DNA of 63,973 bases, counting the filler, from Stramenopiles sp. TOSAG23-6 (Eukaryota): assembly GCA_900128565.1 (NCBI GenBank). It is 3 parts of 3 records of this genome, joined end to end, with 100 filler letters (N's around TTAATTAATTAA, not from the genome) between each part and the next. Parts side by side here need not be neighbours in the genome. Positions count along the whole stretch, not along the records: positions 1 to 23,040 come from LT636010.1; 2 more parts are not named here. One strand, 5' to 3'. The notes under the pieces were generated by a model. That model made no database searches and was not told where the DNA came from. It was given only the letters and a program-made list of their open reading frames with translations. Below, one piece after another: positions 1 to 63,973 of this stretch. Both the position numbers and the translations under genes were made by a program. Every line of letters starts with the position of its first letter. The stretch's first letter is position 1.

Positions 1-968
1 AAAANGANGANGANGAAAAAAAAGAAGAAAAAGAAGAAGAAAGGAGACACAGAGACAGAAGCAACAGACGAGGAAACACCAGAAGCTGACAACGCTGTTG
101 CAACTGAAGAAACCCCAGAGGACGGCACAGAAGACAACGCTGTTGCAACTGAAGAAACCCCAGAGGACGATACAGAAGTTAAAGAAGAAACTAGAAGATT
201 TCGTTTCAGACAACTTAGCCCTAACCCTACAAGATTTCGTTTTAGACACAAAATACAAAGCCAACAAAATTTGTATTTGGGACTGAGAAATCGAAATATA
301 TCTAAAACTGGATGTGCAGATGTATGTTTTATTATTTTTTTTTTGAATTTTGATTTTGATTTTTTTTTTCATACGAAATTTTGTACCTAACAATTGTTTT
401 TTTACTCAATTTTTTTTTTTTGAAATATTTTTCCAAAATATATGGTCTTGCACCAACTGTAAAAGCTGACACTCCTCAACCTCCAACTCATTTCACAGAT
501 TTTTCATGTCAAACATTTTGTGTTATAAAAGATCTATTTTGTCAAGATCAAAGATTTGTGAAGTTTTCGCCAATGTACATGTATGTTTTATTTTTTTTTT
601 TTTTACCGAAAAAAAAAATCGAATTTATTTTTCGTACGAAATTTTGTACCTAACAATTTTTTTTAGATTTTTTTTTAAATATTTTTCCAAAATACATTGA
701 ACTACTCCAAGATATGCATGATCGTGGAATGATTGTTGACGAATCCGTTTATATCGCGATAATGCAACCTTTTATTTGGGATTGTACAGTTTCATCCGTG
801 AGTATCTTGCAAACACTTTTAGAGGATCGAGTTATGAGAGGTGGTGAAGCTACTGCTGATATATATCGATGTGTTATATTAGGTCATCAAAATATTGGCG
901 ATGAGGAAAGTGCAAATGAATTAATTAAAGCAATGGAAAATCAAGGAATGTGTTACCATTCAAGATGA
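1..968 (+). CDS. 5'-truncated protein with acidic N-terminal repeat and C-terminal PPR-like repeats; exons <1-321, 444-580, 698-968
   Basis: Frame 1 is open from the window start. Removing 322-443 and 581-697 gives ..SKTGCAD|GLAPT..KFSPMYI|ELLQDMHDRGM.. The C-terminus (IELLQDMHDRGMIVDESVYIAIM; IYRCVILGHQNIGDEESANELIKAMENQG) resembles PPR motifs. Confidence 0.6.
88..169 (+). repeat. Coding direct repeat, two copies of ~37 nt with period 45 (DNAVATEETPED)
   Basis: GACAACGCTGTTGCAACTGAAGAAACCCCAGAGGACG at 88 and 133. Confidence 0.9.
322..443 (+). other. Non-canonical repeat intron copy 1 (GT..TAT, 122 nt, phase 0)
   Basis: GAT|GTATGTTTT..TTTCATACGAAATTTTGTACCTAAC..GAAATATTTTTCCAAAATATAT|GGT; removal keeps the frame. 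Confidence 0.8.
581..697 (+). other. Non-canonical repeat intron copy 2 (GT..CAT, 117 nt, phase 2)
   Basis: TAC AT|GTATGTTTT..TTTCGTACGAAATTTTGTACCTAAC..CCAAAATACAT|T GAA; joins ORF 381 frame to ORF 714 frame. Confidence 0.85.
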
Positions 969-1019: not shown

Positions 1020-4000
1020 TTACTTTTTCTTTATTGGGATACATTCTTCTCTGATCCAATATTTTGGTGATATTTCTTTTGCAAATCTTGAAACTTTTGC
1101 AAAATTCCCATTTTCATCCTTTAACACAAAAGTCGCATAAAACTCCTCCCGAGCTCTCGTCAATGCAACAAAAGCTAACCTTCGTTCTTCCTGAACATGA
1201 GTTGTAGAAAAATATGTCATTTTGTTTTCATTTTTTAATTTTTTTTAATTTTTTTTAATCTTTTGTTACGAAAACAAATTTTAATTTAAAAAAAAAAAAA
1301 AAATTAAAAACAACTTAATTCGAAATTGAAAACGTACATCAGTAATTGTATTTTGCATTATATTCAAATCATCTGCAAGAGTTTCAATTGTCGCAAAATT
1401 ACGTTGTGGTACTTTCCAATGCATACCCCAACGAACTCCATTGGTAAGTGATGAACTCGCAACCTTTGCTGATTTATATGCATTTTGTATCGGTGTCAAG
1501 ATCTCTTCATGTTGCTCAATTAAGGGTATTATTCTTTCATTGAAACGCATTAGAAATACAACTGGCCATTCTAAACCCTTTGCTTGGTGAATAGTTGACA
1601 CTACGACAGCATCAGCTCTTGTTTTGATACCATGTTTACTATGCTTCTCCATTTGTCTTCTCTGTAATACTGACAGTATACATCGACGGAGATTTTCACT
1701 TCCTTTACTTTTATTTTCTGTATTTGTTTCAAATTTGAGATCGATTTCATAGGCTAAAATATCTTCTTTCAAAACTGAAATATTATGTCTTTTTGTTTGC
1801 TCTGTTTTTTTATTTATTCGTAAATAGTCTAAATATCCTGTTTGTTGTAGTATAAAATTAATAATTTCACTTGGTTTCATGTCCACAATTTCTTTACGAA
1901 TCTTTTTAATGTCTCGACAAAGATTTTTTAGAGATTTTTTTTGATCTGAATTTAATTTTGGTATTATATTTTCGTCCTCTCTAGAATTTTGTCCGTCATT
2001 TGCGGCAAGACAAAAGACTTCCCATGCAGAGAGTTCAGGATCTGACTGCCATATTTTTTGTAATTCCTTTCGAGTTTTATGTCGTATACCCGTTGTTTTA
2101 ATGCCAAGTACACGAAATAATGAACTATTAAAATCAGATTCGTCATGTGATGAAAAAGGATTTGTCTTTGAGAAAGAATTGTTCATTCTCATAGTGAGTA
2201 CATCACACCAAGCGAGAATATGGATTATGAAAAAATATTAAAAAAAAAAACCTAAATTTGTTAGGTACAAAATTTCGTACGAAAAAAAATCTAATTTCGA
2301 AATTGAAATGAAAACGTAAATCCTTTACTTCTGGTGTAGCATAAGCATCACCAGAGACATGCTCTGCCGTATTTAACGTAGGAATATTTAACTTTTTAAT
2401 TGCTACTTCGACCATTTTTGCTAGTCTTTTCGTTCGGGCTAAAACACAAATATCACGAAATCGCCTGCCTCGCTCTGACCAATGGTGCCGTATATTTGAT
2501 GCGATACGGGACACTTCATGATGAATATTTAAACATGGTAATAAATGTAATTTACTACCATTGGCGTTTGAAGTCCAAATATTCTTCTGTTCCCTGCCAA
2601 AAAACGCATAAATTGGAATCCTACTAGAATATCCTATATTTTCTATACTTTTATTATTTTCTATATTTTTATTTTTCATCAGAATTGGCCCATTTTTACT
2701 AGGGTTAGTGCTAACTAATTGTTGTAAAACTCCTGTTGAATCTTTAGAATCTTTAGAATGTTTAGAATGTTTAAGATCTTTAGAACATTTATAATCGTTA
2801 TGTTGAATAAGAGAAAATGCTGCTTTGACAATCGTTTTTGTTGATCTAAAATTTCGTTTTAGTGTTAATATTTGAGTGGTGGGGAAAATATCTTGAAATA
2901 AAACAAAAGCACGTGCAGAAGACCCACGAAAACTGTATATTTGTTGATCATCATCTCCAACCACCGTAATAGCAAGTGATTTTTCACATAATAGTTGTAT
3001 TAAATCAATTTGTTGTTGACTAGCATGTATTTTGGAAAAATATTTCAAAAAACAATTGTAAAAATCGTTAGGTATAAAATTTCGTACGAAACAAAAATCG
3101 AATTTGAAAAACAATAAAACATATATCTTGAAACTCATCTACTAAAAAGTGTGTGAATTTTTTTCTAATATTTTTTAATATAGTATTTGCATTCGTTTTG
3201 AGCAACATCAAACACATCGGAATAATATCAGCGAAATCAACTAAATTTTTTTCTTGGAGATTTTTTTCATACATTTTGTATATTTCAAAAAATTCACTAA
3301 CAGCAGCACCAGATTTTTGCTTTTCTTTTTTACCACTATCCAGGCTATATTGCAACGGCGTCAAACTATTGATATATTCCGAAACCAAGCACGGTCGGTG
3401 CAATCTTTGTTTACACATTTTGATAAATTTCATACAAATTCCCACAGATTTTTCTACTACGGGATCTTTTTGACTATTATTTTTTTCAGTTTTACATTCC
3501 GTACCAAATTCCGTACCATTTGATATTTCTGTGTCTACGAAATCTTTTTCAATTTGATCAACTTTATTCAAAATTCTTAGATTAGTACTATCTAATGCCT
3601 GTATTGCTCCAAAATTATCACTATGGTGTATTTTATATTGTTTATAACATTCTCTAATTATTTTTTTCTGCTCTTCGGGATTGACCACTTTTAGCTCATT
3701 GGATGACCTACAGCGACCCGTGGCACCAACGTTTCTTTTTAGAATGCGAAGGCAAAATCCATGGAAAGTACAAACCTGTAAAGTTCGAATTGATTCACTT
3801 CGAAATACTTGACTCACTCGTTCTCGTATTTCATTTGCGGCCTTGCGAGTAAATGTCACAACACATATATTTTCAGCTTTTATACCTGATTGAAGCATGT
3901 TGATGATACGACAAGTCAAAGTTAATGTTTTACCTGCACCAGCAGAAGCGATAATAGCTAGGGGTCGATCAAAGGAAGCAGTGACTGCCTTTCGCTGATC

Positions 4001-4648: not shown

Positions 4649-4756
4649 GCTTTGTTCGAACGAGTCGCCCTGTGTCTGCTGCTGTCATTTTTTTTTGTTA
4701 TTTGGGATCTTGTTTTATTTTTTTGCAGTAAAAAGTTTGAAAATAAATTTATTTTA

Positions 4757-10879: not shown

Positions 10880-10986
10880 TAGAAAACAAAGATCACTAAA
10901 ATTAGAAATGAAAACATGAATGAACTGCTGCTGTCACGCTGTTTGTTCTTCTTTCACTTGAATGTGATTGCTCCTCTGAACTTCGT

Positions 10987-10998
10987 GTACCGGGTAAC
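10987..10998 (+). promoter_or_regulatory. Candidate promoter element GTACCGGGTAAC (second copy at 19094-19105)
   Basis: Exact 12-mer found in two short divergent intergenic regions. Confidence 0.35.
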
Positions 10999-11137
10999 AT
11001 TTTTTTTGAAAAATTCAACTCGCAACTCGCTCTACAAAAAGACAGCGGAGAGAGAGAGTTTGTTTCTCTCTAATTCTCTGAACTGTGTTGACAGGAGGAC
11101 AGTTTTTGTTTTCACGTGTGTTATATTAATAGATTAT

Positions 11138-14100
11138 ATGAAGATGAAAGGGGCAAAGGGGCAATTAGAACTTGTTGATGTAGGAGTCTCTATTCCTTTC
11201 GAAAAGGCTGCTGGTCCTGAAAAGCATTTCAAACCTTCCGAAACCTCACGTTTAGCTTGTTGCACACAGTTATCTGCATTATTAGCCAAAAATAAAACGC
11301 AGCAGTGTCGTCATAAGCTTTCCACCACATGTGAACTCTTATGCCCATTGTTTTGGATTGCTTTATTTGGTTTTGTTTATTTACAGTTTGAATTCAAGAC
11401 TACATGTGAATATATTCCTTTAGGAAGGTCAAATGATGACATTTTTGTCGTGTCCGGGACACCCTATTCGGATGATCACTGGGCATCTCACGAAGAAAAA
11501 AAGCAAAACATTAACTTACAATTATTTTTGATGAGAGCACGAAAATGGAAAATTGCTTTATACCCAGACTCAGCTGATTTGCGAAAATTTGTCGATCGAG
11601 TAGATAAGATTGTACCCGGTATAAATCCAGCTGAAATATTTTCCGAAAGTCAGATGAAGAATACGCCAGATTTAAAGTATTTCTCTATGCCAAAGTTTTC
11701 TGATTTAGTCGTATACAAGAAAGATGAAAATGCACTGCACGATTATATAGGCCAAGCTAGTTATGATTCTCTCGATAAAATCGTATTTGCAGTTGCTTTT
11801 GAGAAGACTGGCTTCCAAGATAATATTTGGGAATATACCATTCGTAACAATCAAACATTGGCTGCGAGCCCCGACATTGGCCAAACTGATATGACAATTC
11901 GCAATGGAAAAGGATGGGTACAGGATTGGGGTAATGACAATTCTGTTGAAGGTCAATCAGCAAGGTATGTAAGAGGATATGCTGATGAGATTACTCGAGC
12001 AGAAGGTTTCGATAACAAAAATGATGACAACCACAATAATAACTACTGTACGTTTTCATCATGAATTTCAATTTTTTTTTTTTTGGTTTCATACGAAATT
12101 TTGTACCTAACAATTTTTTTTTGAAATATTTTTTCAAAAGACATGTGATCATCAAACAGGACATCCAAAAGATTTTCCAAAGTCACAGGAAGTACATTGG
12201 GGTAGTGTACCAAACTTTGCAGGAATACAACTATTACTCGATAGAGCTATTATAAATACGCCGTCTACGACATTGTCATCTGCACAAAATTTCTACAAAG
12301 CAATCGCACCTAATCATTTTCAGTGGAGTGATCACAACGCTCTTCGTAGTGCAGCCTGGGAAAGAACATCTAATTTATTTAAGAATCTTTCGTGGTGTCA
12401 TTTTGGAAACTTTATAGACAAAACTGTTCGTCCTCTTATTTATGGATTAGATGAATCAGGACGCAAAAAATTTATTGAAACTGTATTTGCATTTGAAAAG
12501 TCACATATAATGGCACCACAATCAATTACACTTGCTAATTTTCCAGAACCTCGTTTTAGATCAAATATTTTCTTTGAACAAAAAACCATCTTGAATATGA
12601 TGAGTATTTTTTTCGTTTTTGCATTTTGTGTTCCAGTAAAACATCTGCTGAATAAGATTGTTTATGAACATGTATGTTTTCAGGAACAATTTTAAATTTA
12701 AATTTAAATTTATTTATATTTTTATAAAAATTTTGTACCTAACAAAAAAACAAAAAAAAATGAAAATGAAAATATTTTCCTAAAATACATGAGTCTGGAA
12801 TAAAAGAAGGTATGAAAATGATGGGGATGAATGAATTTGCATTAGTCACATCATGGTTAATAACGTATGGTTCACAAATTATATTAACTATGCTTATGGT
12901 TAGCGTCGCAGTGAAAATGACAATGTTTGCAAATTCTTCGATTATCTGTCTGTTTGGATTCTTCTCTTGCTTCTCTTTTTCAGTAATTTCATTTTGTTAT
13001 ATGATGAGTGGATTTTTTTCAAAGGCGACGACCGCAGGAGTTATAGGTGCACTCGCATTTTTTTGTTCATTTTTCGTTTATTTTGCAGTGAATAGTGATT
13101 CTCCCGAAGTCACAGTCCGGATGATCTCTTTCTCTGGAACTGCTTCATTTGCTATGGGTCTTGACACAATCGCGCTATTTGAAAAAAGTGAAATTGGCAT
13201 GACATCTGAAACGTTTGATAGCGTTGGGTTGAACGGTTTAAGTTTAATGGAATTTTGTATACATATGCTTATAGACAGTGCACTATATATTTTAATTGGA
13301 TTTTACGTAGACAAAGTTGTACCAAAAGAAAGGATGATTTCTTTACATCCTTTATTTTTTATCTTACCATCGTTTTGGTGTCCAAGAAGGTGCACATCGT
13401 CAAAAACGCAGTATCAACAAAACGATCGAGTGGGTAACTATTTTGGTGAAGTTGGGGAAGACAATCAAGATAAAGATCCTCATTTTGAACCACTTGCACC
13501 TTTACAAATGAAACAACTTGAAAATCAAAGATGTTTGCAAATTGATAATCTTCGGAAAGAATTTCACACAGCTGATGGAACAAAAAAAGTTGCTGTTGCT
13601 GGTCTAAATGCCGCAATGTTTGAGGGACAAATTTATGTATTACTCGGTCATAATGGTGCTGGGAAGACGACAACGATATCCATGCTCTGTGGGTTGATTT
13701 CTCCTTCTGGTGGCTCAGCTACTGTATTTGGTTATAATGTTCAATCAGAAATGCATAAAATCCGTCAAATGATTGGAGTGTGTCCTCAGCACAACGTATT
13801 GTACGCAGATCTAACTTGTATGGAACACCTGATGCTATACTCGCGAATAAAACTTATACCTTCTTCAAAGCGCAAGGCACAATGTCAACAGCTATTGAAA
13901 GATGTCGGTCTTTCTGAAAAGACAAATATGTTAACACCAACTCTCTCTGGTGGTCAGAAACGTAAATTGTGTCTTGCGATTGCTTTGTGTGGTGATTCGA
14001 AAGTATTATTTCTAGATGAGCCGACCTCTGGTATGGACGTTTTTGCTCAACGTTCAACCTGGAATCTTCTACAAAAAGCAAAAGCCAGTCGTATAATTAT

Positions 14101-17100
14101 TCTGACTACACATTCTATGGAAGAAGCTGATGTGTTGGGTGATCGAATCGGAATTATGGCAAATGGTAAAATGGTGTGCAGTGGATCACCTTTATTTCTG
14201 AAAAATCTGTACGGAGTTGGTTATTGTCTTACTTGTACACGAGCACCTGATGCTATTGCTGGAGGCACTGAAGATGTTGCGCTAGAACAAGCGATTATGG
14301 GACTCATTCCTTCTGCGAAGAAGCTGTCGGAACATGGTAAAGAACTGTCGTATCAGTTACCTCTCGCATCAGCTTCATCATTCGAAAGATTATTTGAAGA
14401 TCTTGGAAAGTTAAGTGATCAAGGAACTCTAGACTCGTTTAATGTTTCAGTAACTACAATGCAAGAGGTATTTCTTCGATCAGCAATTGAAGCTGAGAGA
14501 AGTGTCGCACAAAAAAAAGCAGACGAAGATTTGAAACGAAAATGTTCAATGAGAAAAGAATCATTTCGAGGCTTGTCTTTGGAAGCGAAAGAAAACGAAG
14601 AGAAGAATGCAAACGCTGAAGAAAAGTCACGAATTCAACGTCAAAGGACTTTGATGGGTGAAGAGGCCGAAAAAGCTCTTAACAATCGCCTCAAGCGATT
14701 GAATCGAAGTATGATATGTGTACATTTTGTGGCTCTTTTAGCAAAACGATGGCATAATGTTAAACGTGATTTTAAAGCAGTTTTGTTTCAGGTTATTGTA
14801 CCTATATTTGCACTGTTTATTGGTATTTACTTTGTGTCAAATGTAACAACGGAATACAATGCAATAGTACCAAATACAGCCAAGTTTAATGAGAAATTGA
14901 AGGCTCCGTATTCACACAATACGAGACTTCCATTTACAATGATAAACCCTTCACCAAAAGTGAATGAACTGATTTCTAGTGTCAAATCCAGAAAAGATTA
15001 TCAAATCTCAGGTTCTGATTTTGATGCAATTTCTGTTATTACAAAATACGATGGTCAGTATTGCCATAATGAAGACATTAAAGAAACTGATGAGTGGTAT
15101 GCCACAAATATGCCTGGTAAAGATCCCTGTGACCCAAATACAGCTCGAACTATGATTTTTCCCGGAGTTTGTGCGACATGTCAGCAAGCTAATCTTGATT
15201 GTAAAGGTTTGGTGAAGGGAAGTATTTGTTACCCAAAATCTCAAAGTCAGATACAATCGATTGGTGCCATGGGATATACTGATTTAGAGCTATTGCACAT
15301 TGTGCAATCTGGCTGCAAGGATAAAGCTGTGGGTGACTCTTGTAAGTTCACTTTAGAACAAGACATTAATAAATTTGATCCTTATACAAAGAGTCAGTTG
15401 ATAAGTGCTGCTCGATACTCAGTACTCGAAAATAAGAGAAAACTGAAAACTATTTCTAAAAATGAAAAAATCGAAATGCAGAGAATAGCTTTTTGTGCAA
15501 TGAATAAGCGAGTAATTGAGACTTCAAAATTAGATGCTTCTTCTGTGTATAGCGCTATGATGTTTCACGGTGACACAGATATAGTTGATGGGCGTTTTCA
15601 TGCTTCCCTTCAATTTAATCAAACAGCACCACATGGTCCTGTCCTAATGCAAAATATATTGAACACGGCCATTTTACGGCGGACTTTACAATCTACCACT
15701 GCTTCAATACAGGTGACAAATCATCCGCTACCACCTACAGCATCTGAAATTGCATTCAGTACTCAAGTCGCTGGTTTCATGGTCGTGTTTATTGTTGGCA
15801 TTGCGTGGGCTTTTATTCCAGCTGCTGCGGCTGAATTTATCGTTCACGAAAGATATCACGGTGTTAAACATCAGCAATTAGTTTCAGGTGTCTCATTGAC
15901 TGCTTATTGGTTATCAAATTTTTTCTGGGATTCTATTCAATATACTATTCCTGCTGGTGCTGGTGTCGCGATATTTTTATATTGGGATATTGATGTATAC
16001 ACTCGATCATCGGGTAATAATTTCATGTGTTGTGTCACTTTAATTGCCACATACGGGCCTGCAGCTATAGGTCATGCGTACTTACTCAGTCGTCTTTTCG
16101 AGAAACCGGCAAAGGCTGTAAATTCCATTCTTGTCATGAATGTTCTCCTTGTTATTGTAATTATCGCTATATTCGTTGCACAAACAGTTAATGCGTCGTC
16201 TTGTAATATTGCATCTAATTTGAGACGACTGTTTTTAACTTTTCCAGGATACGCATTCGTTGATGGCCTTTTAAGACTATCATTATCAAGTATCATGATG
16301 ACATGTGATGAGCGCCACAATCCTCTTGTAATGCCACCCCGTCTCGCTGAAGGACAATTTCCTGATGCATTTCAAATGAAAATTACTGGCGATTCTATAA
16401 TGTATATGGGAGTTTGTAGTCTTTTATATCCGATTCTGTGCATACTTATTGAACTCTTTTATAGTGTTCCAACTTTACGAAAACTATTTTGTGGTTGCTT
16501 TGAACCTAGCACAACTGATAAATTATGTTATGATGACGATGACGTAGGTACTGAGGTGAAGAATATGAAGAAAAATGCAAATGTATCATTGGCTGAATCG
16601 ATGGTTGAGGTACGCGGTCTTCGAAAAGTATATAATGTAAAGAAAGCTTCAGGTGGAAGAAGTGTCAAAGCTGCAGTCAAGGATATGTGGTTTCGAATTC
16701 CACAAGGTGAATGTTTTGGTCTTCTTGGTGTAAATGGTGCAGGCAAATCAACTACTTTTAAGATGCTCAGTGGTGATGTGTTACCATCCAGTGGCACTGC
16801 GCGTCTTGGTGGCCGTGATGTCATGTCTGAGCAAGTTGCCGTTCGTCGGCTAATTGGATATTGCCCTCAGCATAATGCATTATTACCACGACTTACTGTA
16901 ATTGAGCATTTATATTTATTTGCAAGGATCAAAGGTGTAACGAATGGAATTGATTTGGTTGTTAAAAATCTATTAAAATCTATGGATTTAGTTGAATTTA
17001 CTCATAAACGCTCATCGTCTCTTTCAGGGGGTAATAAGCGAAAGTTATGTGTTGCCATTGCACTTATTGGAAATCCTCCTGTTATTTTCCTGGATGAACC

Positions 17101-17974
17101 TTCGGCAGGTATGGATCCTGTAGCAAAACGATTCATGTGGGATTTAATTTCGAAAATGTCAACGGAAAATTCTGAAGCTTCACAGAAGCTTACGATAATT
17201 CTCACTACACACTCTATGGAAGAATGTTCAGCACTCTGTACTCGCATTGGTATAATGGTTGATGGTCGTTTGCAGTGTTTAGGATCTGAGCAGCATTTGA
17301 AAAACAGATTTGGTCAAGGATATCAATTGGATATTAAGTTGAAGGAACCTACAACAGAAGAGATAAATAACATTCTAGATACTATTCGAAAGACAATAAA
17401 TCCAGCGGGACATATTTTATCGAAAGATATAGATAAAGCATGTAGCGCACTGGGTGATATTGGTAGAAGTGTTCAGTTGATGCCTGATGATGTTAATGCC
17501 AAACCTAAAAGATCGAAAACATCTAATAATTCCGAGGCTAATGATAACAAGACAGCTGGAAGTTCATGGTTATTGAAAGAAGCTCTCACGAAAGAAGGAT
17601 TCTTAGAGGCTACTTCATTCGCTAGGTGGTGGTTACGTACGGATTGGACGTTTGCCGTATCGACTTGGGTATCACAGGAACTCTCGTCTACTACAGATTT
17701 ACAAGAGCAACATGGAGGAACTATTCGATATGCTGTGGATGGGATGCCTAAATCGAATGATGCACAGGACACTCAAGGTGCTCAACATGCGGCAAGCACT
17801 AGCGATGGTAGTAGACGGGTTAGTCTTGCGCGAATGTTTGGTATGATGGAAAGTGCTAAGCAAAAACTTTTCGTTGAAGAATATGCACTTGGGCAGACTA
17901 GTCTTGAACAAATTTTTATTTCTTTTGCCAAGAAGCAAGAAAATGATGCAGGTAATGTAAAAGGCTTCAAATAG
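11138..17974 (+). CDS. Full-size ABCA-subfamily ABC transporter; exons 11138-12047, 12145-12671, 12791-17974
   Basis: Two NBDs (LLGHNGAGKTT, LSGGQKRKL, FLDEPTSG; LLGVNGAGKST, LSGGNKRKL, FLDEPSAG, HSMEE), two TMDs, ABCA signatures IQLLLDRAII, VYEHESGIKEGMKMMGM and TSLEQIF. ATG 11138 is chosen as the likely start. Confidence 0.95.
12048..12144 (+). other. Non-canonical intron copy 6 (GT..CAT, 97 nt, phase 1)
   Basis: TAC T|GTACGTTTT..TACCTAAC..TTTTCAAAAGACAT|GT GAT; joins into the frame containing IQLLLDRAII. Confidence 0.88.
12672..12790 (+). other. Non-canonical intron copy 7 (GT..CAT, 119 nt, phase 0)
   Basis: GAA CAT|GTATGTTTT..TTTTGTACCTAAC..CCTAAAATACAT|GAG TCT GGA; gives VYEH|ESGIKEGMKMMG. 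Confidence 0.88.
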
Positions 17975-18313
17975 ATGTTTTTATTATTTATATTTAGTAC
18001 CTCACTGGTACGATATTAATTTTAAAAATAAATTTGACTCCATTACTTTTATGCATTTGTTAAATTTTCTCAATGATGTAATATTTTTCAATTGATTTTA
18101 AAAAATACTTCAAATTCTTCGAAACTAATTCTTCCATCCACTTTCGACTAAAGATACGACACGAAATATAATATAATTACTCCTGTGAAGAAACAAAAAA
18201 AGAAATTTGTTTTCTACGTATAATAATTCATTTTGGAGACCTTACTACAATTTAAGTAAAATAATGTTTTTATATCATTTTAAAAATTGAAAATATTCAA
18301 AGTATTTTTTTAT

Positions 18314-19069
18314 TCATTTTATTGATAATTTTAAAAAATTCCTACAATATTTTTTTATCAGTGTATTACTTTTTGAGTAGCAACACTCTTTTTTGTGTGT
18401 ACTCTTCCAATGTGTTTTTTGACACTTCTTTGAACAATACCACACACATTTACACGCATTACAAAAGTATAATTCAGTAATTTTGTCAACTTTACCACAA
18501 TTCACACATTTTGAGTTGTCATATTCCAGTATCTCGTTTTTTAGTGTCTCATCTGTTGTATCTGTTATCTGTTTTTTTGCTTTCCTCATCCACTTTGCTC
18601 CTGCTTTATAACATTTAGTGACACCCAGACCCTGCAAATAAAATAAACCAAGATTACACTGTGCTTTCACGCAGCCTTGTTTTGCAGCTTTTGTATACCA
18701 TTCAGCAGCAGTTTTATAACATTTAGTTACACCGTGACCTTTTTCATAACATACACCAAGATTATACTGTGCGTGCGTAAAGCCTTGTTTTGCAGCTTTT
18801 GTAAACCATTCAGCAGCAGTTTTATGACATTTAGTAACTCCATGACCTGTATAATACCATAAACCAAGATTAAACTGTGCTTCCATTCGGCCTTGATTTG
18901 CATCTTTTGTAAGCTCCTCAGCGGTTGGCGCATAAACATCACCATGAACACCACCAAAAAATTTCAGTCCTTCCATGTGGCATTCAGTAGCACACCCGTA
19001 TGTAAAACGTATCCTAGGTCCTACTTCAGATTCGCGTTTAGTACTGTCGTACTGTCTTCTTCTTGGCAC
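18314..19069 (-). CDS. Sel1-like repeat protein with C-terminal MYND zinc finger
   Basis: Three 36-aa repeats AQ.NLG..Y..G.GV.K....A..W..KA.KQ, then CVNC..CNAC..YCSKKCQ..HW..HK..C. The ORF opens on GTG; the first ATG is at 18976. Confidence 0.85.
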   Translation of the reverse strand: MPRRRQYDSTKRESEVGPRIRFTYGCATECHMEGLKFFGGVHGDVYAPTAEELTKDANQGRMEAQFNLGLWYYTGHGVTKCHKTAAEWFTKAAKQGFTHAQYNLGVCYEKGHGVTKCYKTAAEWYTKAAKQGCVKAQCNLGLFYLQGLGVTKCYKAGAKWMRKAKKQITDTTDETLKNEILEYDNSKCVNCGKVDKITELYFCNACKCVWYCSKKCQKTHWKSTHKKECCYSKSNTLIKKYCRNFLKLSIK

Positions 19070-19229
19070 AGGTCCGATCTGAGCCGATTTCGAGTACCGG
19101 GTAACTCAATTTTTCTAACACGTGCCGCTACTGTTCTCCCCTTGTGACAATATTTTGTTGTAAGTGTACTAATTAGCTACATTAATAATCAACACAAGTA
19201 CATACATTTACGTGTTATACTTGAGAAAG

Positions 19230-19532
19230 ATGTCAAAAATAGTGAAGCGTGGCGCAGAATTTATTGCTGCAAGTAATCGCTTATTTGCAGGGATGAATGG
19301 ACGTGCTGGGAGAAAAGGAGTGAAGAAGCGCCCCATTGCCCGGTCACAGTATATGGTTGGTGACTTGACCAAAGGTATTATGGGATATTGGCCTGAATGG
19401 CGACCTCATAACTTACCATTATATTTCTCTACTGAGATGGAACAGAAAGAACTAAAGGATGATCGTTTGAAGCGACGTGGCAAGGGTCCACCAAAGAAAG
19501 GCGCTGGAAATAAAAAGAGAAAAAAACGCTGA
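19230..19532 (+). CDS. Mitochondrial ribosomal small subunit protein mS33 (MRPS33/Rsm27 family)
   Basis: Small basic protein ending in the family signature RLKRRGKGPPKKGAG.K; ATG at 19230. Confidence 0.75.
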   Translation: MSKIVKRGAEFIAASNRLFAGMNGRAGRKGVKKRPIARSQYMVGDLTKGIMGYWPEWRPHNLPLYFSTEMEQKELKDDRLKRRGKGPPKKGAGNKKRKKR

Positions 19533-19768
19533 ATGGTCCCTCCAACAGTGTGGTATTAAGTTATAAGTGTATTATACTACATGTTTTATGTCCCTTGAAA
19601 AGTGTATAGATAAACGAATGATATTTTAATTAAGTAGTTTACTCGTATAGTACTGTAATTATGAAATTGAAAATTTAATAGTAGCCAAAATAATATGTAA
19701 AGTAGGCAGTTTACTGTTGGTAATGCTGAAAGTGACGCCTGTCTAGCAACACAAGACACCAAAGCTAC

Positions 19769-21552
19769 TTAAATATTGTCGTACCAACGATCTTCAACAG
19801 TCACACTTGTCAATCTTTCATATGGATCCACTAAAGGAAGGCCATTTGTTGCATATTCTATTTCCTTTTTGAATTCCAAGAGCTCCATATGTTTCAAACG
19901 TTGGATTTTCTTTTGTTTTGTTTCCTCAATTTGTGCATTCAAAGTTCGTTCTTTTAGCGAAAGACCACCTTTATTCCTCTCTGCTATTCTTAGTGCTGTC
20001 GCAACCTCTATTTGACTAACACCCACTCGCTTTCGTTTGACTTTGATTTGTGGTGGTTTGCGTAAAGCAGCAAGAATTCTTTTTGTTGAAAGATTTTTTC
20101 TTTTCCGTATAATTTTTTCGTTTTTTCGGAGTCGTAATAATTGAAACTTTAATTCATTTTGTTCTCGTTCAAATTTCTCATCCTCGCTTTCATTTTGTGT
20201 ATTGTCTCTTATGTGTCTCGTACTATTAATGATACCATTGATAGTACCATTGATAGTACCATTGATAGTACCATTGATAGTACCATTACAACATGAATGA
20301 TTTTTATTGTTACTACAATTTCCATTTCTAATCATCTCAACTCTATTTGATATTTCTTTCGTTAATTTTTGCTTTTCTATTAGCATATTTGATCTGCCAT
20401 TAAAATCACATGGGTTACATTGTGTTTTCTCATTTAGTTTCACAGAGCATTTTATACTACTATTATATCCGATGCGCTGATTTTTCAGCCAATTGGCAAT
20501 TTTATAATGATGTTTTGTTCGCGCTACATTTTCTGGCTTTTCTCCCGTAGTTTTTGTGACAATATTTAGTAGCTTTTCTCGATCTTTACTTTTTCTATTT
20601 TTTTGTCTTTCAAGATGAAAACTTGAAGAAGAATAGTTTATATTTGATGCTTTTATATGCTCTATATATCTGGGAATATTTGAAACGACACCAACAAGAA
20701 ATTTCACAATCACTTGACTACCTTGTCTTGCAGCTAGATGTATTTTGGAAAAATATTTAAAAAAAAATCGTTAGGTACAAAATTCCGTACGAAAAAAAAA
20801 TTATTTACTAAAAAAAAAAAAATAAAACATACATGTAGAGCCGTCCAATTTTCTTTGTCAACTGTTCCTATCAACCTTTTTACTGCAGCAGCACCACCTT
20901 CCTTCAAACATTGTTCAATGAGCCATTGAACTACAGAAACATGCCCTTGATCACACGCAAGCATAAGAGTAGTACGACCCCTCCTTTCCTTTGCTTCCAT
21001 AAAAGCACCATTATCTTGTAGCCAACGCATCATCTCTAGGTTGCCTGCAGAGGCTGCGACATGTATTGGATGAAAACCTCTTTTATCAAGGGATACGATA
21101 CTCCCCCCCATACTATATATGATTAAATGCGCAATATGAATGTTGCCAGTCATTGCTGCTATATGTATAGCTTTGAGATTTTCTCCACCGGTCGCTTCGT
21201 CAGCTAAAACCACGTTAGCGTTACGTGCACTTTGTAGCAAAGTCTTACGAAAAAGGTCAACTTGGCCTGTGCGAATTGAAGCCACAACTTTCTTTTGCTG
21301 TTCTATAGTAAAAGGCACCGAATAGTCACACAATAGTATTCGAGGTTTTCTGGGTAAATTTATTTGGTTAGCATCTGATAAAAGTTCCTTCAAACGTTGA
21401 GGTTTCCTTGAGGAATGAAAAGGTATTTTACATTCATGATCAACTTTACTTTGTATAGTTTTATATAATTTTAGCCCTTGCCCTTCTTTTGAAGTTGGTT
21501 GACTATGAGGCCGACTATTTCGACTTCGAGAACTAAATCCAATGGCACGCAT
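19769..21552 (-). CDS. Ankyrin-repeat protein with basic coiled-coil C-terminus; exons 21552-20833, 20737-19769
   Basis: AIHIAAMTG, PIHVAASAG, TTLMLACDQG. The fourth repeat WTALH|LAARQG is restored by removing intron copy 8. Confidence 0.88.
20226..20288 (-). repeat. Coding 12-nt tandem repeat (NGTI x ~5)
   Basis: (ATTGATAGTACC)n on the + strand; protein NGTINGTINGTINGTINGIIN. Confidence 0.9.
20738..20832 (-). other. Non-canonical intron copy 8 (GT..CAT, 95 nt, phase 0)
   Basis: CTA CAT|GTATGTTTT..TACCTAAC..CCAAAATACAT|CTA GCT GCA; restores ankyrin TALH|LAA. The nearest downstream AGs give frameshifts. Confidence 0.92.
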
Positions 21553-21644
21553 GTACGAATGAATAATCTATAGAGAATTAATCTTTGTAGATCTTTTGAT
21601 ATTGACTAGGGACGTTTTCTTGTTGTCATCTGGAGGGAAAGTCA

Positions 21645-21686
21645 ATGACGTCATAACAGAAACGAAGCCATCATAACAGAAACGAA
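21645..21686. promoter_or_regulatory. CRE-like palindrome ATGACGTCAT overlapping a 16-nt direct repeat in a divergent promoter
   Basis: ATGACGTCAT at 21645-21654; TCATAACAGAAACGAA at 21651 and 21671. Confidence 0.35.
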
Positions 21687-21764
21687 AAACTGCTACTGCC
21701 GCTACGAATGGTTGGCTGTTAAACTTATATTACGTATCTTAACACAATCAGTAAATTGAATAAA

Positions 21765-22957
21765 ATGCATATTTTAAAGTCCATCGCATTGTGTGCTGTG
21801 ATTACTTTGGTATCTGCCGCACCAGAGAGTGACTTTGTTGAATCATTACCTCTCTATGGTCCTCCGCCAACACCAATGTACAGTGGCTTCTTGAATGCGA
21901 CTTCGTCATCACCTGACCGTGGAGTCCGCTTGCACTACTGGTATGCGCAAAGCACTAAACTAAACCATAGATGGGCTCCTACTGTCCTTTGGTTAAATGG
22001 TGGACCAGGTAGTACGTCTATGTTGGGTATGCTTCAAGAGAATGGCCCGCTCTTAATCAACGCCACTGGCGGGTTGATGGACAATCCTTATGCCTGGACA
22101 AAGTACGCAAATATGCTATATCTAGAAAGCCCTTCTGGTGTTGGATTCAGTTACTGTCATTTATCAAGTGTTCCCGATTCTGACTGCAAAAACACAGATG
22201 TAACAACAGCTCGAGATGCTCGTATTGCTTTACAAGACTTTTTTACGAATAAATTTCCTGAATTGAGAGGAAATGAATTCTTTATTACAGGCGAGTCATA
22301 CGGTGGAGTGTATGTATTTTAGAATTTTTTTTCAATTTTGAATTTTTTTTTCGTACGAAATTTTGTACCTAACAAATTTTAGTTTTTTTTTTTAAATATT
22401 TTTCCAAAATACATGTCCCTACACTGGCTCGTGAAATTTTAGACAATGCTCCAGAAATTAATCTTAAAGGTGTTGCCGTTGGCGATCCCTGCACTGATAA
22501 TAAGGCTCAACAGGATTCAATGGACATGCTCTGGTATGCTCACAAACACGGTTTTGTTCCTGATGTACGTTTTCAAAATTGATTTTTTTTGAAACATTTT
22601 CATACAAAATGTTGTACCTAACAATTTGTTTTTCTAAAAAAAAATATATTTTTTCAAAATTTATGATGAGTTCGATTTATTATGGAATAAATGCCGCGCT
22701 CGTCACCCACCCCCACTTGTACTAGGTACGGTCAAAGGTAAAGGAAATGCAGATTCTCGAGGACGAATGCAAATGTCAGTCTGGAGTGAAGAATGCCTCA
22801 TTGCAAAACGAAAATACATGCTACAATCGTCCATGGCATTTTCACAAGTTTGGGATCATGCTTGGATCAATAATTTATCATTATATGGACCGGGATCTCC
22901 AGGTGATGTCTCTTTTGATCAACCAGGAAGTTTGAATTATATGACTTTACAATTTAT
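21765..22957 (+). CDS. Serine carboxypeptidase (peptidase S10), secreted, 3'-truncated by gap; exons 21765-22313, 22415-22564, 22665-22957
   Basis: Signal peptide, YSGFL, WLNGGPGSTS, NPYAW, LESPSGVGFSY, nucleophile motif GESYGGVY|VPTLA and NLKGVAVGDP. Confidence 0.93.
22314..22414 (+). other. Non-canonical intron copy 9 (GT..CAT, 101 nt, phase 0)
   Basis: GTG TAT|GTATTTTAG..TTTCGTACGAAATTTTGTACCTAAC..CCAAAATACAT|GTC CCT; restores GESYGGVY|VP. Confidence 0.9.
22565..22664 (+). other. Non-canonical intron copy 10 (GT..TAT, 100 nt, phase 0)
   Basis: CCT GAT|GTACGTTTT..TGTACCTAAC..TTTTCAAAATTTAT|GAT GAG TTC; gives HGFVPD|DEFDLLWNKC. Confidence 0.82.
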
Positions 22958-23040
22958 GTACGTTTTCATTTCAATTTCGAATTTTTGTTTTCGTACGAAA
23001 GTTTGTACCTAACGATTTAAAAAATTTTATTGTTTTACAA
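22958..23040 (+). other. Non-canonical intron copy 11 (5' part; runs into assembly gap)
   Basis: TTT AT|GTACGTTTTCATTTCAATTTCGAA..TTTCGTACGAAAGTTTGTACCTAAC. Confidence 0.85.
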
Positions 23041-23140
23041 NNNNNNNNNNNNNNNNNNNNNNNNNNNNNNNNNNNNNNNNNNNNTTAATTAATTAANNNN
23101 NNNNNNNNNNNNNNNNNNNNNNNNNNNNNNNNNNNNNNNN
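23041..23140. other. Assembly gap with artificial TTAATTAATTAA six-frame-stop linker
   Basis: 100-nt N-run with a central TTAATTAATTAA; identical structure at 45883-45982. Confidence 0.97.
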
Positions 23141-33229: not shown

Positions 33230-36200
33230 TTATAAGTCTTCGGTATAAGGTATATATATTCTTTCTTTTTCTTCTGGGACTAAAATGACATAGATAGTAA
33301 ACCACATAACAAATATTATCAAAAATACAATAATCATAAAATATTTCATACGGCGTTGAAACACTTCAGCTGCTTTCTTTGCTTTAATAGCTTTACTAGC
33401 TGATAACCTGGCTTTTGTAGCCGGAAGCGATACATGTTTTCTAGGACCAAGACTTAATTGATGTATAGTGTTACTAATCAGTGTATTTTTTTTTAGTGTT
33501 GAAAAACTCACGATTGGGCTTTGACCACTCATTCCAACATTACTCTGAGCCTGTAGGCGAAATTTGTACGATTTGCCTGGTAATAAACCTACAACTTCAT
33601 ACTCCAAATTTTTACCAGTGTATATAGTATGATATTCATTTCCATAGCTATCATTCATCAATAAACTATATGCTTCTACTTTATGACCACGCCCGTCAGT
33701 TGGTGCCCATGGATTATGAAAAAATATTTCAAAAAAAATCGTTAGGTACAAAATTTCGTACGAAAATACATTCAAAATTGAAATGAAAACGTACACTCTA
33801 ACAAAAATGATGTAGTTGTCCTAGTATGAACATCAATTACTGGTGGTAATGGAGGTAAAGGAGGTCTTTCGCGTTCGACTGTAGTTCTTGCAACAACCCA
33901 TTCGCTACACTTACCAGGTCCAATACTATTGATACCACGAACACGAAAACGAAACACAGAATCTGGAAATAATTTCGATATTATAACTTTACGTTTTGAA
34001 AAACTGACAGAACGCGGTGTATTTTCATGTCCTTCTCTAAATATCTCATATCCTAATATAGTAGATCCATTACAATCAGGACAATCCCATTGTATAACAG
34101 CAGATGAGTCAGTTGTAGAAACAACTGTTACATTCGCAACTATGGATGGTGCCAAAGAACACGTTTTAAATTCTAAATTGCAGCTAGATTCTGATAGTCC
34201 AATAGCATTCTCTGCTTTTACATTTACTCGGTACGTCGTACCAAGGGCAAGATCATCAAGATAAAGTACACCAGAAGAAACATCTACATAATGTACCAAC
34301 ATGTTGTTATTTGGTAATATATCATTTGAATTGTTTTTCTTATTTTCCATTGCTGTATCTGCAAGTGACGTAAACGTCTTAAACTGAAACACAGCACTAC
34401 CGTGATGATGATGAGGTAGATTAAGGCGAATTCGAGCAGTAGTGGCTCGAACATCAAGTAACTTTGGTTGTGGAGGAATAGAAGGTCTACCAGCTAATGT
34501 CGTATACCCTACAATCAGACTACACGGACTCCATCCAATTTCGTTTCCCATTTGCAAGAAATACCGAGATGATCTTCCCATGATGAGATTGTTTACAACA
34601 CAATATGGTTCGACACCTTCATAAATTATAGTAAAAGAACTAAAACTTGTGTTTCCTAGATTTCGTGGTAATTGCGTTTTTTTTAACTTGTGGTTTTCAC
34701 TACATTTGGAGGCATCTTGACTATAATCAGACCAAAGGCGCCATCTACAGATACGACTTCCGCCTTTGTAATCATGACAAAATTTTTCTGATGAGGCAAA
34801 AGTAAAATTCATTGATGTTTTACATCGCTTACTCACGCATGGGACGTAAGGTTCTTGGGGTGCAACTACAAGTGTTGATGATGTGATAATGGGTGAAGCT
34901 TCGCCAAGACCTTTTGCATTTTGTGCATACACACGGAATTCATAAGAATGACCCGGTAGTAAATCATTAATACTTGTACCACAAATGTTTGCATTTTTTT
35001 CTTTACACCATGGAATAATCGCATTATTCCAATCCATAATATCTGATTCATTACAAGAAACAACATCTGATTTATCAAGAGAAATGTTATCTCTGTCTTC
35101 TATATAAGAATAATCAAATGTTGCGCGTGGGTGAAAATATATAGCATCCGTATTAACTTCAAAACTCACCTCATTGCTATCGTACCGTACACCATATCCT
35201 ATTGAAGTATAGTAATCAATAATTACATTCTTATTTTCCACAGAGCATGCACTGCCGATAGGTAAACGAGGGCGTATTTCTGTAATGGGTAAAACCAAAG
35301 TTTGATTAAATTGTGATAAAATAATTTTCACAGATGTGCATTCCTTTGGAAATGTTTGCTTCGCTACAACACCAACATACCAGTCCACAAGTTCCATCTT
35401 TTGATTGCTTCTATTCAAAATCTTTCTCGCTACATCGGCATTGACTTCACATTCAACACCACAGCATAGTAACTGTCCTAGCTCTCTGATACCATTTTGT
35501 TTGATATCACGACACTGATTTACAAGCGCATCTCCATCCCACATAGCTGGAGGTAGATGTCTATACTCTAGTATAAAGTTAGATAGTGCACATCCTCCAT
35601 TATTACATTGTGTTGACCATTGTAGATGTAATGCTTTAGTGTCACTCTTTACGACATATGGCTTTTCAAGTAATTGACCAGGAGAAACACCATGAGTTGT
35701 CAATACATTCCCTATACTCCATGGGCTCGAACCTGCATCGTTAAAAATACGAATTCTATATTCATATGAAATACCAGGTGATAGGTTTGTATGATTATGT
35801 CTCATTGAATTACCCAAGTATATTGTTTCATATTTGCTAATGGCTGCCAAGAGACATGTAGAAGAATTTGTATGCTCCGCTTGTACACGACATAGTCGCA
35901 TCTGTACTTCATATTTAGAGGCTTCCTCTTTATCATGCAGTTTCCACTGTAATCGTATAAATGTCGATCCTATAGGATTATTTGCTTTTGTGTCGATAAC
36001 AGGTGGTTTCATAGCTTGTGGTAAAGATGCCGATGTTCTGACAGATACAACATTAGACCAATGCGACTTTCCAATACTATTTTCACANCAAACACGGAAC
36101 CAATACAAATGCCTTGGTAAGAGACGCTTCACTTCGTATTGACATACGAGTTTATTACACACTGTGATAAATATACCTGAGGAAATTTCACTAGTCTTGC

Positions 36201-45882: not shown

Positions 45883-45982
45883 NNNNNNNNNNNNNNNNNN
45901 NNNNNNNNNNNNNNNNNNNNNNNNNNTTAATTAATTAANNNNNNNNNNNNNNNNNNNNNNNNNNNNNNNNNNNNNNNNNNNN
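45883..45982. other. Assembly gap with TTAATTAATTAA linker
   Basis: N-run with central TTAATTAATTAA. Confidence 0.97.
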
Positions 45983-46038
45983 AATTTTGTACCTAACAAA
46001 TTTAAGTTTTTTTTTTGAAATATTTTTCCAAAATACAT
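45983..46038 (+). other. Non-canonical intron copy 13 (3' part, ..CAT, phase 1)
   Basis: AATTTTGTACCTAAC..GAAATATTTTTCCAAAATACAT|TA CTT GGT GGA directly after the gap. Confidence 0.85.
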
Positions 46039-62253: not shown

Positions 62254-63917
62254 TCATCCGAACTCTCGAATTAAAAATTCCTCATAAAATTGTCGAACGT
62301 CAGCAAGCATTTTACCAGCAGATTCTTCATTATAATTCGGTGCGAGTATATGTATTTTGGAAAAATATTAAAAAAAATATATCGTTAGGTACAAAATTTC
62401 GTACGAAAAAAAATTTCGAATTTGAAAAAAAGTAAAACATACATTCGGAATCCAATGTGCATTAGATACTTCAATTCGAAGAAAATACAAACCCGTAGGA
62501 TGAAGCAACTGTTTAAATGCTGAGTGCTCTATTTCATTTTTTACACACTCAACATCATCCCATTTATACGAGAGATCTACTTCAAGGTCTAAATATTGTC
62601 TAATCTCAATTTCAAATTTACGAGCCAATTGGAGAGTCATTTGTCTTTGAGAATTTATATCATCAGTGGAAGAGATTTCAAAATTCTGTGAGTTCTGCTT
62701 AATCGTTTCAACGGATTTTTCATTTTCAATAAAAGTCACACTATCAGTAGTTTGTTTTATTGTTTGTGTTTTCGCAGTTGTTGTACTTTTGTTCGAATAG
62801 AACGAAAATGAAAATCGAATATGAGCCAAAAATGGATATTTTTTTTTCGCCGCTGCGCTTCCAGAAGATGTGTTAGGATTGTTTGAAGACAAAGACACTA
62901 CACCTGATAGTGCTAATGGCGAATCTGCTTTTGAATACTCTGGAAATTGTAGTATATTTAATCCTTGAGCAGCAGCACATCTATATAATTTCTTCATATA
63001 ATCTGCAATTTGACCACAGGACGCGGCTAGCCACTGAACCTCTAAATGGAAGCATTTGTCATAAAAAAATTGGGAATCCATTTTTAGTAAAAGCCATTCA
63101 TACCTAAAATATGGCCCAGATGAATCATTCGCACCTTTTGTAGATTTATCACTATTTAAAGCATTAATCTTACTATTTGAACTTGAACTAGAAAACGATT
63201 TCGACCGCAAAGGAATTTTTAAAAGTCGCGATTGTTTGTCTCCTGTCCAAAGTTCAGTTGGCGAAGGGGTCCATCCCATAATAGTTTGATAAAACTGTGA
63301 AAATCTGTCATTTGCTTTCTTTACAAAATTCGCTAGTTGTACCGCCTCGTTTGCGATTTCATTTGCCTTATGAGCAGCTACTGCAGCATTCTGAGCAATT
63401 GTAATAGGAATGTCAAATATAGACGAAGAAGATTCAATATTTCGTTTTGAATCATCTATTTTTACTGTATTTGTAGTTTGATTTACATTGTTCTTTGTTC
63501 TATACCGGCTAACAGGAATTATAGCATGATGCTGTCTCATTGTGCGCTTCCTCTCTTGAATTGTAACATCCCAATTTTCCCATTGTCCTGAAACAATTTC
63601 ATCTATATAAGTCCAATTTGTGTCCTCTGCACTATCCTCCTTAAAATAAGTGTTATATGCAACATATGAATGTATTTTGGAAAAATATTTCAAAAAAAAA
63701 AAACTAAGATTTGTTAGGTACAAAATTTCGTATGAAAAAAAAAATTGAAAAAAAATAAAACATACATTTACACAAGGAGACCAAATATTATAGGAATAAG
63801 GGACAGACTCTATAAAATCTTCTTTCGTCTTTAGGGTATAAATAGCACCACGAAGTTTACTTGGAATTTCTGATGAATCATAAATTAATTGTTGAATCCG
63901 TTTCCCAGTGGAGACCC
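62254..63917 (-). CDS. DEPDC5: DEPDC5/Iml1 (GATOR1/SEACIT subunit) C-terminal part; exons 63917-63766, 63669-62443, 62349-62254; 5' part beyond window
   Basis: W.S.G.RIQ.L.YD, NWTYIDEIVSG, YEW......F....FHLEVQWLAAS..I......R.A...GL.I..FP, LLHPTGLYF..I....WIPN resemble the Iml1/DEPDC5 C-terminal domains. Confidence 0.75.
62350..62442 (-). other. Non-canonical intron copy 14 (GT..CAT, 93 nt, phase 0)
   Basis: CCG AAT|GTATGTTTT..TTTCGTACGAAATTTTGTACCTAAC..CCAAAATACAT|ATA CTC GCA. Confidence 0.85.
63670..63765 (-). other. Non-canonical intron copy 15 (GT..CAT, 96 nt, phase 0)
   Basis: GTA AAT|GTATGTTTT..TTTCATACGAAATTTTGTACCTAAC..CCAAAATACAT|TCA TAT; joins two open frames. Confidence 0.87.
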
Positions 63918-63973
63918 AAGTATTTTGGAAAAATATTTCAAAAAAAAAAAACTTAAATTTGTTAGGTACAAAA
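63918..63973 (-). other. Non-canonical intron copy 16 (3' part, ends ..AAAATACTT, phase 1)
   Basis: TTTGTACCTAAC..GAAATATTTTTCCAAAATACTT|GG GTC TCC; 5' end is outside the window. Confidence 0.78.

Follow-up and report, generated by a model that had tools for sequence, protein, structure and literature searches.

The introners of Micromonas pusilla and Aureococcus anophagefferens are short, non-coding, near-identical elements found in many unrelated genes, and their likeness ends at the exon boundary. They show a direct repeat over the boundaries and short inverted ends, and they are removed perfectly at the mRNA level. A target site duplication (TSD) or a terminal inverted repeat (TIR) is present in 59% of the introner families for which both could be scored, and in 78% when ascomycetes are left out (Gozashti 2022). 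In Fritillaria, according to a review, the 3′ site is formed by a TAC of the exon preceding the intron. Here, an intron family is described from 63,973 nucleotides of Stramenopiles sp. TOSAG23-6 (assembly GCA_900128565.1), hereafter the window. It resembles the Micromonas and Aureococcus elements in the above features, the inverted ends being marginal and confined to one subfamily and the removal from mRNA being conceptual. The analysis was centered on 22312-22414, which consists of an exon AT followed by a 101-nt frame-interrupting intron (22314-22414), copy 9 of 16, in a serine carboxypeptidase gene immediately 3′ of the GESYGGVY codons. Mechanistically, the introners of Micromonas and Aureococcus appear to be its nearest counterparts, with those of Fritillaria borealis and Amoebophrya also close.

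The family was collected by motif scans, an nhmmer profile, and direct reading of the window, which recovered the 16 copies already counted in a preliminary description of this DNA. Thirteen copies, of 86-141 nt, are complete; the other three are truncated at a contig linker or at the end of the window. They reside in at least eight unrelated genes, and every recognizable intron of the 64 kb (16/16) is a family member. nhmmer E-values were 9e-18 to 2e-7 across 15 copies, and pairwise identity over aligned columns had a median of 89% (range 75-98%). The likeness extends to both intron boundaries and ends at the exons, the exon flanks being unrelated, which is the pattern by which introners are recognized in Gozashti 2022. 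In order, the common blocks are the donor (GTATGTTTT or GTACGTTTT), TTTCGTACGAAATTTTGTACCTAACRA, a T run, and GAAATATTTTTCCAAAATACAT or a variant as the 3′ block; conservation across copies is highest in the donor, the branch box, and the 3′ end.

Two subfamilies with linked differences at both ends were distinguished. Subfamily A (GTATGTTTTA...TTTCCAAAATACAT) is the more uniform and the younger set, with the copies at 385, 648, 20776, 22367, 62390, and 63719 being 88-98% alike and those at 3073 and 12737 the most divergent. Subfamily B (GTACGTTTTCA...TTTTTCA[TA]AA...AT) comprises at least five copies and is more diverged; since its copies have derived 5′ and 3′ ends in common, this subfamily has multiplied as well. 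The copies are of common descent, are precisely removable, are flanked by AT, and end in a dinucleotide other than AG, and they very probably constitute a mobile, introner-type intron family. Alternatively, they could be old, immobile introns in a lineage with few introns, resembling one another because long fixed signals are required by a spliceosome that is reduced or altered. Such an origin would suit the identical signals in every intron of the window, but approximately 70 of ~95 positions are common to the copies, including spacer blocks without a known splicing role, and the two subfamilies differ by changes that are linked between the two ends. That whole introns converged independently is very improbable.

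Excision of the GT...AT unit joins open frames of the same phase in all 13 complete copies, including the divergent copy 3, and retention would shift the frame or add a stop in 12 of them. Junctions were compared with the 120 closest carboxypeptidase fragments of a protein collection (P0001-P0120), related to 21756-22322, which have local identities of at most ~68% and best full matches of 65%. The conceptual junctions of copies 9 and 10 (GGVY/VPTLA and GFVPD/DEFD) are gap-free against the uninterrupted relatives P0003, P0054, P0047, and P0097. Similarly, the position of copy 5 corresponds to PcrA residues 227/228, exactly between the motif DEFQD and the residues aligning from PcrA 228. Copy 15 (96 nt, no in-frame stop) is the sole complete copy of which retention would add residues (+32) in an open frame. 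Copies 4 and 5, both in the helicase gene, start with TT and AT instead of GT in the register that suits the other copies; the gene appears intact.

In the 14 copies with their 5′ exon flank in the window, this flank is AT in 12, CT in one (12046-12047), and GT in one (33796-33795), and exon position -1 is T in 14/14. With AT on either side of the unit, there are three ways of writing the cut, namely GT...AT, TG...CA, and AT...AC. No register yields an AG end, and an AG between branch box and 3′ end is bypassed in 7/14 copies. In the GT...AT register, a GT donor is present in 12/14 copies and an AT end in 14/15; in the AT...AC register, just 10/15 copies end in AC and an in-frame TAA arises at 12046 in copy 6, which has the CT flank. 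GT...AT fits better than AT...AC. U12-type AT-AC introns carry an ATATCC donor and a TCCTTAAC branch site; with a donor reading (AT)GTATGT and the register results above, this type was rejected for the family. In euglenid nonconventional introns, positions +4 to +6 (CAG) pair with -8 to -6 (CTG), according to a review. Here, +4 to +6 read TGT or CGT and -8 to -6 read AAA in the majority 3′ end (...AAAATACAT), and a euglenid-type intron was rejected.

The family introns are probably removed by the spliceosome. An Rfam search of the window gave no match, hence no small nuclear RNA gene for comparison with the donor. Contigs of three polyA RNA runs and one seawater DNA run (X3) were aligned to 2880-22879, a region covering six introns. 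No spliced joint (e.g., 22313 to 22415 or 12047 to 12145) was present among the 15 joints listed, of 15 plus 128 further; those listed are cross-matches between family copies. RNA-run contigs heap on the intron places (1479 pieces in X8); given thousands of copies, DNA traces could do the same, so the heaps establish neither retention nor transcription. The exon lying between introns 6 and 7 was also used as a protein query, in search of a transcript-derived open reading frame (ORF) across the decisive junction, and gave no match.

For the spread of the family, insertion at the DNA level into AT sites of genes is given about an even chance. A short non-autonomous element would multiply as DNA, inserting into such sites, and would be tolerated because splicing of the spliceosomal type would clear it from the transcript. 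The yeast-like donor (GTATGT or GTACGT), the strict branch box (TACCTAAC), and the 3′ end would all be supplied by the element itself. Once it is in place, AT would stand on each side (AT/GT...AT/), the cut would fall after the second AT instead of after AG, and the mRNA would be restored exactly to the uninterrupted sequence. The second AT might be a 2-bp target duplication or might result from dropping TG...CA between A and T, two descriptions that are equivalent in sequence; the CT and GT sites favor the latter, in which the second AT belongs to the element. The strongest argument for insertion into AT is that exon end and intron end have the same non-canonical dinucleotide. With the exon AT equal to the intron-end AT, the odd acceptor would be explained.

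The preference for AT is pronounced. AT makes up 9.1% of the coding dinucleotides in the window, so that 12 AT flanks in 14 correspond to a binomial P of 2.6e-11. Ten of the 16 copies are in phase 0, all after NAT codons (Asp five times, His and Asn twice each, Tyr once). This excess has P = 0.016 against an expectation of 1/3 and P = 0.094 when compared with coding AT dinucleotides, 43% of which are codon-final; in view of the latter value, the phase bias mostly follows from the AT preference. The counts of flanks and of phase-0 codons agree exactly with those of the preliminary description.

A stricter form of DNA-level insertion, counted within it, takes the family as a miniature inverted-repeat transposable element (MITE): a TIR transposon GTAT...ATAC mobilized by a DDE transposase in trans, with a 2-bp AT TSD of which the downstream copy became the acceptor. 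This is a tentative reading, held to be less likely than not. In its favor are the arrangement AT/GT...AT/ in 11/13 complete copies, the inverted end of subfamily A, and the palindromic AT target, which can be likened to the TA or TTAA of known transposon superfamilies. No transposon superfamily is known to make a 2-bp AT duplication. A TSD supplying a splice site has precedents in Micromonas and Fritillaria, as described in a review. A rival route runs through RNA: the excised intron would be reverse-spliced into other transcripts, at AT/N sites acceptable to the local spliceosome, reverse-transcribed, and recombined into the genome. This route is considered rather unlikely, and it offers no direct reason for the same unusual AT at exon end and intron end, nor does it account for the inverted ends seen in subfamily A.

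The inverted ends are real. Summed over copies, 86 of 143 terminal positions form Watson-Crick pairs, against 55.8 ± 5.1 for shuffled tails, a value that 0/2000 shuffles reach and that also lies above slid registers; as the copies are related, this amounts to one or two independent observations. The complementarity is borne by subfamily A alone. Minimum-energy RNA folds pair the ends in 6/8 A copies and 0/5 B copies; fold energies are ordinary (z -2.3 to +1.1), and a required terminal stem found no support. In copy 9, the repeat is perfect over 9 nt (ATGTATTTT paired with AAAATACAT), as had been described. It is unique to this copy and, in the alignment, came about by loss of 2 nt of the consensus donor; it is a derived accident and not the ancestral state. 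Five other copies have ATGTAT/ATACAT, a bulged G, and then three paired bases, and two subfamily A copies have a mismatch at position 3 of the inverted end.

A number of observations, on the ends, the sites, the distribution of copies, and the absence of partners, weigh against insertion as DNA, and several of them would be expected if the copies had spread through RNA. To begin with, the inverted repeat attains the 6 nt that Gozashti 2022 asks of a clear TIR in the consensus only when the exon AT is counted, and is 4 nt within the intron; inside the element, the TIR demanded by a strict MITE thus comes down to 4 nt followed by a run of T/A. In the five subfamily B copies, perfect pairing extends over 0-3 nt and 4-5/11 positions pair, which is the shuffle level. 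Subfamily B has therefore multiplied without an inverted end, and the rule that a MITE carries its TIR in all multiplying copies does not hold here.

As to the duplication, the TSD test of Gozashti 2022 asks for at least one position with matches inside loci that are lacking between them. No locus-specific duplication was found: matches within loci versus between loci were 13/13 versus 1.00 at position -1, 11/13 versus 0.85 at -2, and 3/13 versus 0.21 at -3, and the observed value was reached 3481 times in 20000 permutations. An extended direct repeat, seen as TACAT or ACAT in three copies, was not significant, and a 3-nt ATG duplication showed no covariation; both were discarded. Where the flank is CT or GT, exon position -2 is C or G while the intron end retains AT, and an ancestral A at 12046 would create an in-frame TAA, so that 12046-12047 cannot have been AT. 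A strict AT duplication hence requires extra mutations, whereas the RNA-level route requires none for these two exceptions. Under the rules of Gozashti 2022, TSD and TIR would both be classed as ambiguous; families of fungi without TSDs and TIRs are read there as RNA-derived.

The preliminary description had proposed a MITE origin with TIR and TSD, in which the mirror of the donor became the acceptor. What stands of this is that the copies belong to one element and that their ends are inverted repeats above shuffled expectation; the ends are short, the 9-nt run is confined to copy 9, the five B copies have none, the TIR is marginal, and the duplication is not locus-specific. The mirror may be right as history, but what has been kept of it is ...AT (mostly CAT) and not ATAC.

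With respect to distribution, 16/16 copies are sense and lie within coding sequence; that intergenic DNA holds 0 copies is mildly unexpected (P 0.016-0.12, according to how such DNA is counted). Copies of a MITE would be looked for in both orientations and outside genes. A repeated unit that equals the removable unit, always in sense, suits an RNA-level origin, as does the fact that donor, branch box, and 3′ end are the best-kept blocks. Selection against antisense insertions in exons would, however, explain the sense orientation equally well under the DNA model. Three giant ORFs (4757-10879, 40180-45687, and 47850-62216), among them the 4788-aa HYDIN-type ORF, make up 48% of the coding DNA and contain 0 of the 16 introns (P = 2.9e-5), while small genes have two or three apiece, with three copies in the ~1 kb of carboxypeptidase coding sequence seen (P = 0.003) and three in the gene at 62368-63973. 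Clustering in few genes and avoidance of the giant ORFs would be expected if transcript abundance matters. Neighboring introns within one gene are not each other's nearest relatives, which counts against the RNA-level route and makes the clustering look like gene-level susceptibility instead of local hopping.

Neither a transposase nor a reverse transcriptase domain was found in the 33 window ORFs scanned. The first result bears out the earlier statement that the window holds no transposase and leaves DNA-level insertion, and the strict MITE in particular, without a partner element in the window; the second stands likewise against the RNA-level route. Apart from one 10-nt match, no unpaired family termini were found in the window. 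This match, GTACGTTTTC at 39826-39835 (-), equals the first 10 nt of subfamily B and lies in a 613-nt non-coding gap, with GTGA before it and nothing family-like after it; chance, decay of a former copy, or an ordinary 5′-leader intron with this as its donor could each account for it. An 18-mer taken from the branch block had one match in the viral contigs scanned, a chance hit in unrelated sequence. A scan of Joint Genome Institute (JGI) metagenome contigs with a 20-mer likewise gave one chance match, in bacterial-looking coding sequence without family ends.

The state of the insertion sites was examined in the independent seawater DNA run X3, of which 7383 contig pieces heap on the six intron places, the exons being single-copy at depth 5-9; this is the behavior of a repeat that has multiplied. 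Exon contigs end 4-43 nt inside five of the six introns. Four of the six are entered well beyond the boundary from the flanking exon, so that these sites look occupied; copy 9 is entered for just 4 nt, which does not settle occupancy there. No empty-site joint was present among the same 15 listed joints, drawn from X3 and the RNA-run contigs. Occupied sites also suit old, immobile introns.

Among the carboxypeptidase relatives, 71/120 pass the copy 9 junction uninterrupted, 30 break within a few residues of it, and 19 end earlier. The break is exact in four (P0009, P0025, P0049, and P0080), the other 26 lying within a few residues. An older intron at or near the copy 9 site is therefore possible, and old introns would gain from this, but no relative reaching the copy 10 junction breaks exactly there, and the relatives' read-through peptides are unlike the family. 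All things considered, an immobile origin is judged very unlikely. The preliminary description had named sharing of positions with distant orthologues, together with a lack of empty alleles and of an autonomous partner, as what would undo a mobile origin; of the present results, only the exact and near breaks lean that way, and they may reflect shared ancestry or parallel gain. The relatives' ORF breaks heap within the ten residues ITGESYAGVY around the catalytic serine, with several more just before the intron site, which suggests that this region is intron-prone in several lineages.

Dropping between A and T without duplication is also what a Helitron-like rolling-circle element would do. 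A TG...CA unit lies between A and T at 12/14 sites and between C and T or G and T at the others; a duplication is then unneeded, although this is indistinguishable from an AT duplication. Helitrons have 5′ TC and 3′ CTRR ends and a 3′ subterminal hairpin. The family ends are TG/TT/TA...CA/TA/CT without a G+C-rich 3′ hairpin, and the classification fails on these end motifs. Nor was a Rep/helicase partner found in the window, where the UvrD-like gene is a normal gene of the host that happens to be interrupted. Gozashti 2025 reports an introner family that derives from a helitron and lacks TSDs. For the present family, such an origin is thought highly improbable.

Returning to insertion at AT sites as DNA, a broader extension of it may be considered, in which the acceptor is set by the mobile element's own end and not by a search for AG, across about ten thousand introns per genome (extrapolated from 16 in 64 kb). 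The 3′ tail AAAAUACAU, complement of the donor region AU/GUAU(G)UUUU, would then act as a built-in guide uniting the cut sites, and the host spliceosome would have come to accept GT...AT, even in copies starting with AT or TT, genome-wide. As a whole, this extension is regarded as unlikely.

The coordinates of all copies are collected in Table 1.

Table 1. Copies of the intron family and the exon dinucleotide preceding copy 9; positions count along the window.
Feature	Position	Strand	Start...end	Phase	Subfamily	Gene and remarks
Copy 1	322..443	+	GTATGT...ATATAT	0
Copy 2	581..697	+	GTATGT...ATACAT	2
Copy 3	1197..1337	-	GTACGT...ACTCAT	0		UvrD-like helicase gene; divergent, 141 nt, without ACCTAAC box
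Copy 4	2220..2319	-	TTACGT...ATCCAT	0	B	Helicase gene
Copy 5	3025..3124	-	ATATGT...ATACAT	0		Immediately after helicase motif DEFQD
Copy 6	12048..12144	+	GTACGT...AGACAT	1		Flank CT; cut shifted by -2 (AT-AC type) gives in-frame TAA
Copy 7	12672..12790	+	GTATGT...ATACAT	0		ABCA-type transporter gene
Copy 8	20738..20832	-	GTATGT...ATACAT	0		Ankyrin-repeat gene
Exon dinucleotide AT	22312..22313	+				End of Tyr codon TAT before copy 9; junction GGVY/VPTLA gap-free against relatives
Copy 9	22314..22414	+	GTATTT...ATACAT	0	A	Serine carboxypeptidase gene; 101 nt; donor 2 nt short of consensus
Copy 10	22565..22664	+	GTACGT...ATTTAT	0	B	Serine carboxypeptidase gene; junction VPD/DEF gap-free
Copy 11	22958..23040	+	GTACGT...	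2		Serine carboxypeptidase gene; 3′ part lost in contig linker
Copy 12	33709..33794	-	GTACGT...ATCCAT	1	B	Fibronectin-III repeat gene; flank GT
Copy 13	45983..46038	+	...ATACAT	1		Dihydrouridine synthase gene; 3′ part only (5′ part lost in contig linker)
Copy 14	62350..62442	-	GTATGT...ATACAT	0
Copy 15	63670..63765	-	GTATGT...ATACAT	0		Sole copy in frame and stop-free if retained
Copy 16	63918..63973	-	...ATACTT	1		3′ part only (window end)

In addition to the TTTCGTACGAAA palindrome at the center, several copies contain a second palindrome-like block (AATTTCGAAATT and variants) in their 5′ half, at 2290-2301 (-) and with equivalents in copies 9, 11, 12, and 14.

The window is eukaryotic DNA, dense in genes, poor in introns, and with a G+C content of ~37%; 93% of its length lies in stop-to-stop ORFs of 100 codons or more. 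Its products include a 4788-aa HYDIN-type flagellar ORF, an ABCA-type transporter, the serine carboxypeptidase, the UvrD-like helicase, ankyrin and Sel1/MYND proteins, and others. Parts of the window were found in seawater DNA and polyA RNA runs of eight studies, which points to a marine flagellate source. Three contigs are linked by N44-TTAATTAATTAA-N44 at 23041-23140 and 45883-45982. Both linkers interrupt family introns (copies 11 and 13); the assembly was evidently broken by the repeat family, and the three pieces may have been joined in arbitrary order. Approximately 60 lone N letters lie at 40428-45294, within one 1835-aa ORF, with almost none elsewhere in the window; they may be masked ambiguity codes of a polymorphic or co-assembled region.

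The interest of the family lies chiefly in its non-AG acceptor and in offering intron gain in a testable form. Should RNA data bear out the cuts, a protist would remove essentially all its introns at GT...AT, providing a natural test case for 3′ site recognition in the second splicing step, an instance of a mobile element bringing or creating splice sites, and a clean example of intron gain following near-total intron loss. In practice, gene models of such uncultured marine protists will be wrong when the gene caller takes GT-AG for granted. No published account of such an intron family was found in the literature searched; the supplementary tables of Gozashti 2022/2025 may list families from marine metagenome-assembled genomes (MAGs). 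Non-canonical introns are not mentioned in the available parts of the single-cell genome papers on marine stramenopiles (MAST) and a related preprint.

Compared with the systems described so far, the family combines familiar features in its own way. The Micromonas and Aureococcus introners are GT/GC-AG, with locus-variable duplications of at least 3 bp and clear TIRs, as summarized in a review; in the present family, the 3′ end is AT, the repeat is an invariant AT only, and the TIR is marginal and absent in one subfamily. The MITE-derived introns of Fritillaria borealis (AG-AC, AG-AT) are similar in having non-AG acceptors on a genome scale, some of them AT, and an exonic motif repeated at the intron 3′ end. 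They differ in their AG donors, their exonic motif TAC, and their animal host, whereas the window family has a strong GTATGT donor, a strict branch box, and a single dominant family. The introners of Amoebophrya (Syndiniales) likewise have non-canonical ends, inverted repeats joining the ends, short direct repeats at the boundaries, and no transposase that would explain them (Farhat 2021). Their inverted repeats measure 8-20 nt, their direct repeats are variable (3-5 nt), and they have no fixed end dinucleotides and no detectable U1 (Farhat 2021), in contrast to the fixed GT...AT ends, the inverted repeat of at most 9 nt, and the apparently U1/U6-compatible donor found here. Finally, introner-like elements of ascomycetes are also restricted to genes, sense-only, and without clear TSD or TIR, and they drift into ordinary-looking introns (Gozashti 2022). 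They are canonical GT-AG introns for which reverse splicing was proposed, while the present introns have a non-AG end and AT-flanked sites. Unlike all these systems, the family joins a strong canonical-type donor and branch box to a fixed AT acceptor, and this one family accounts for every intron seen.

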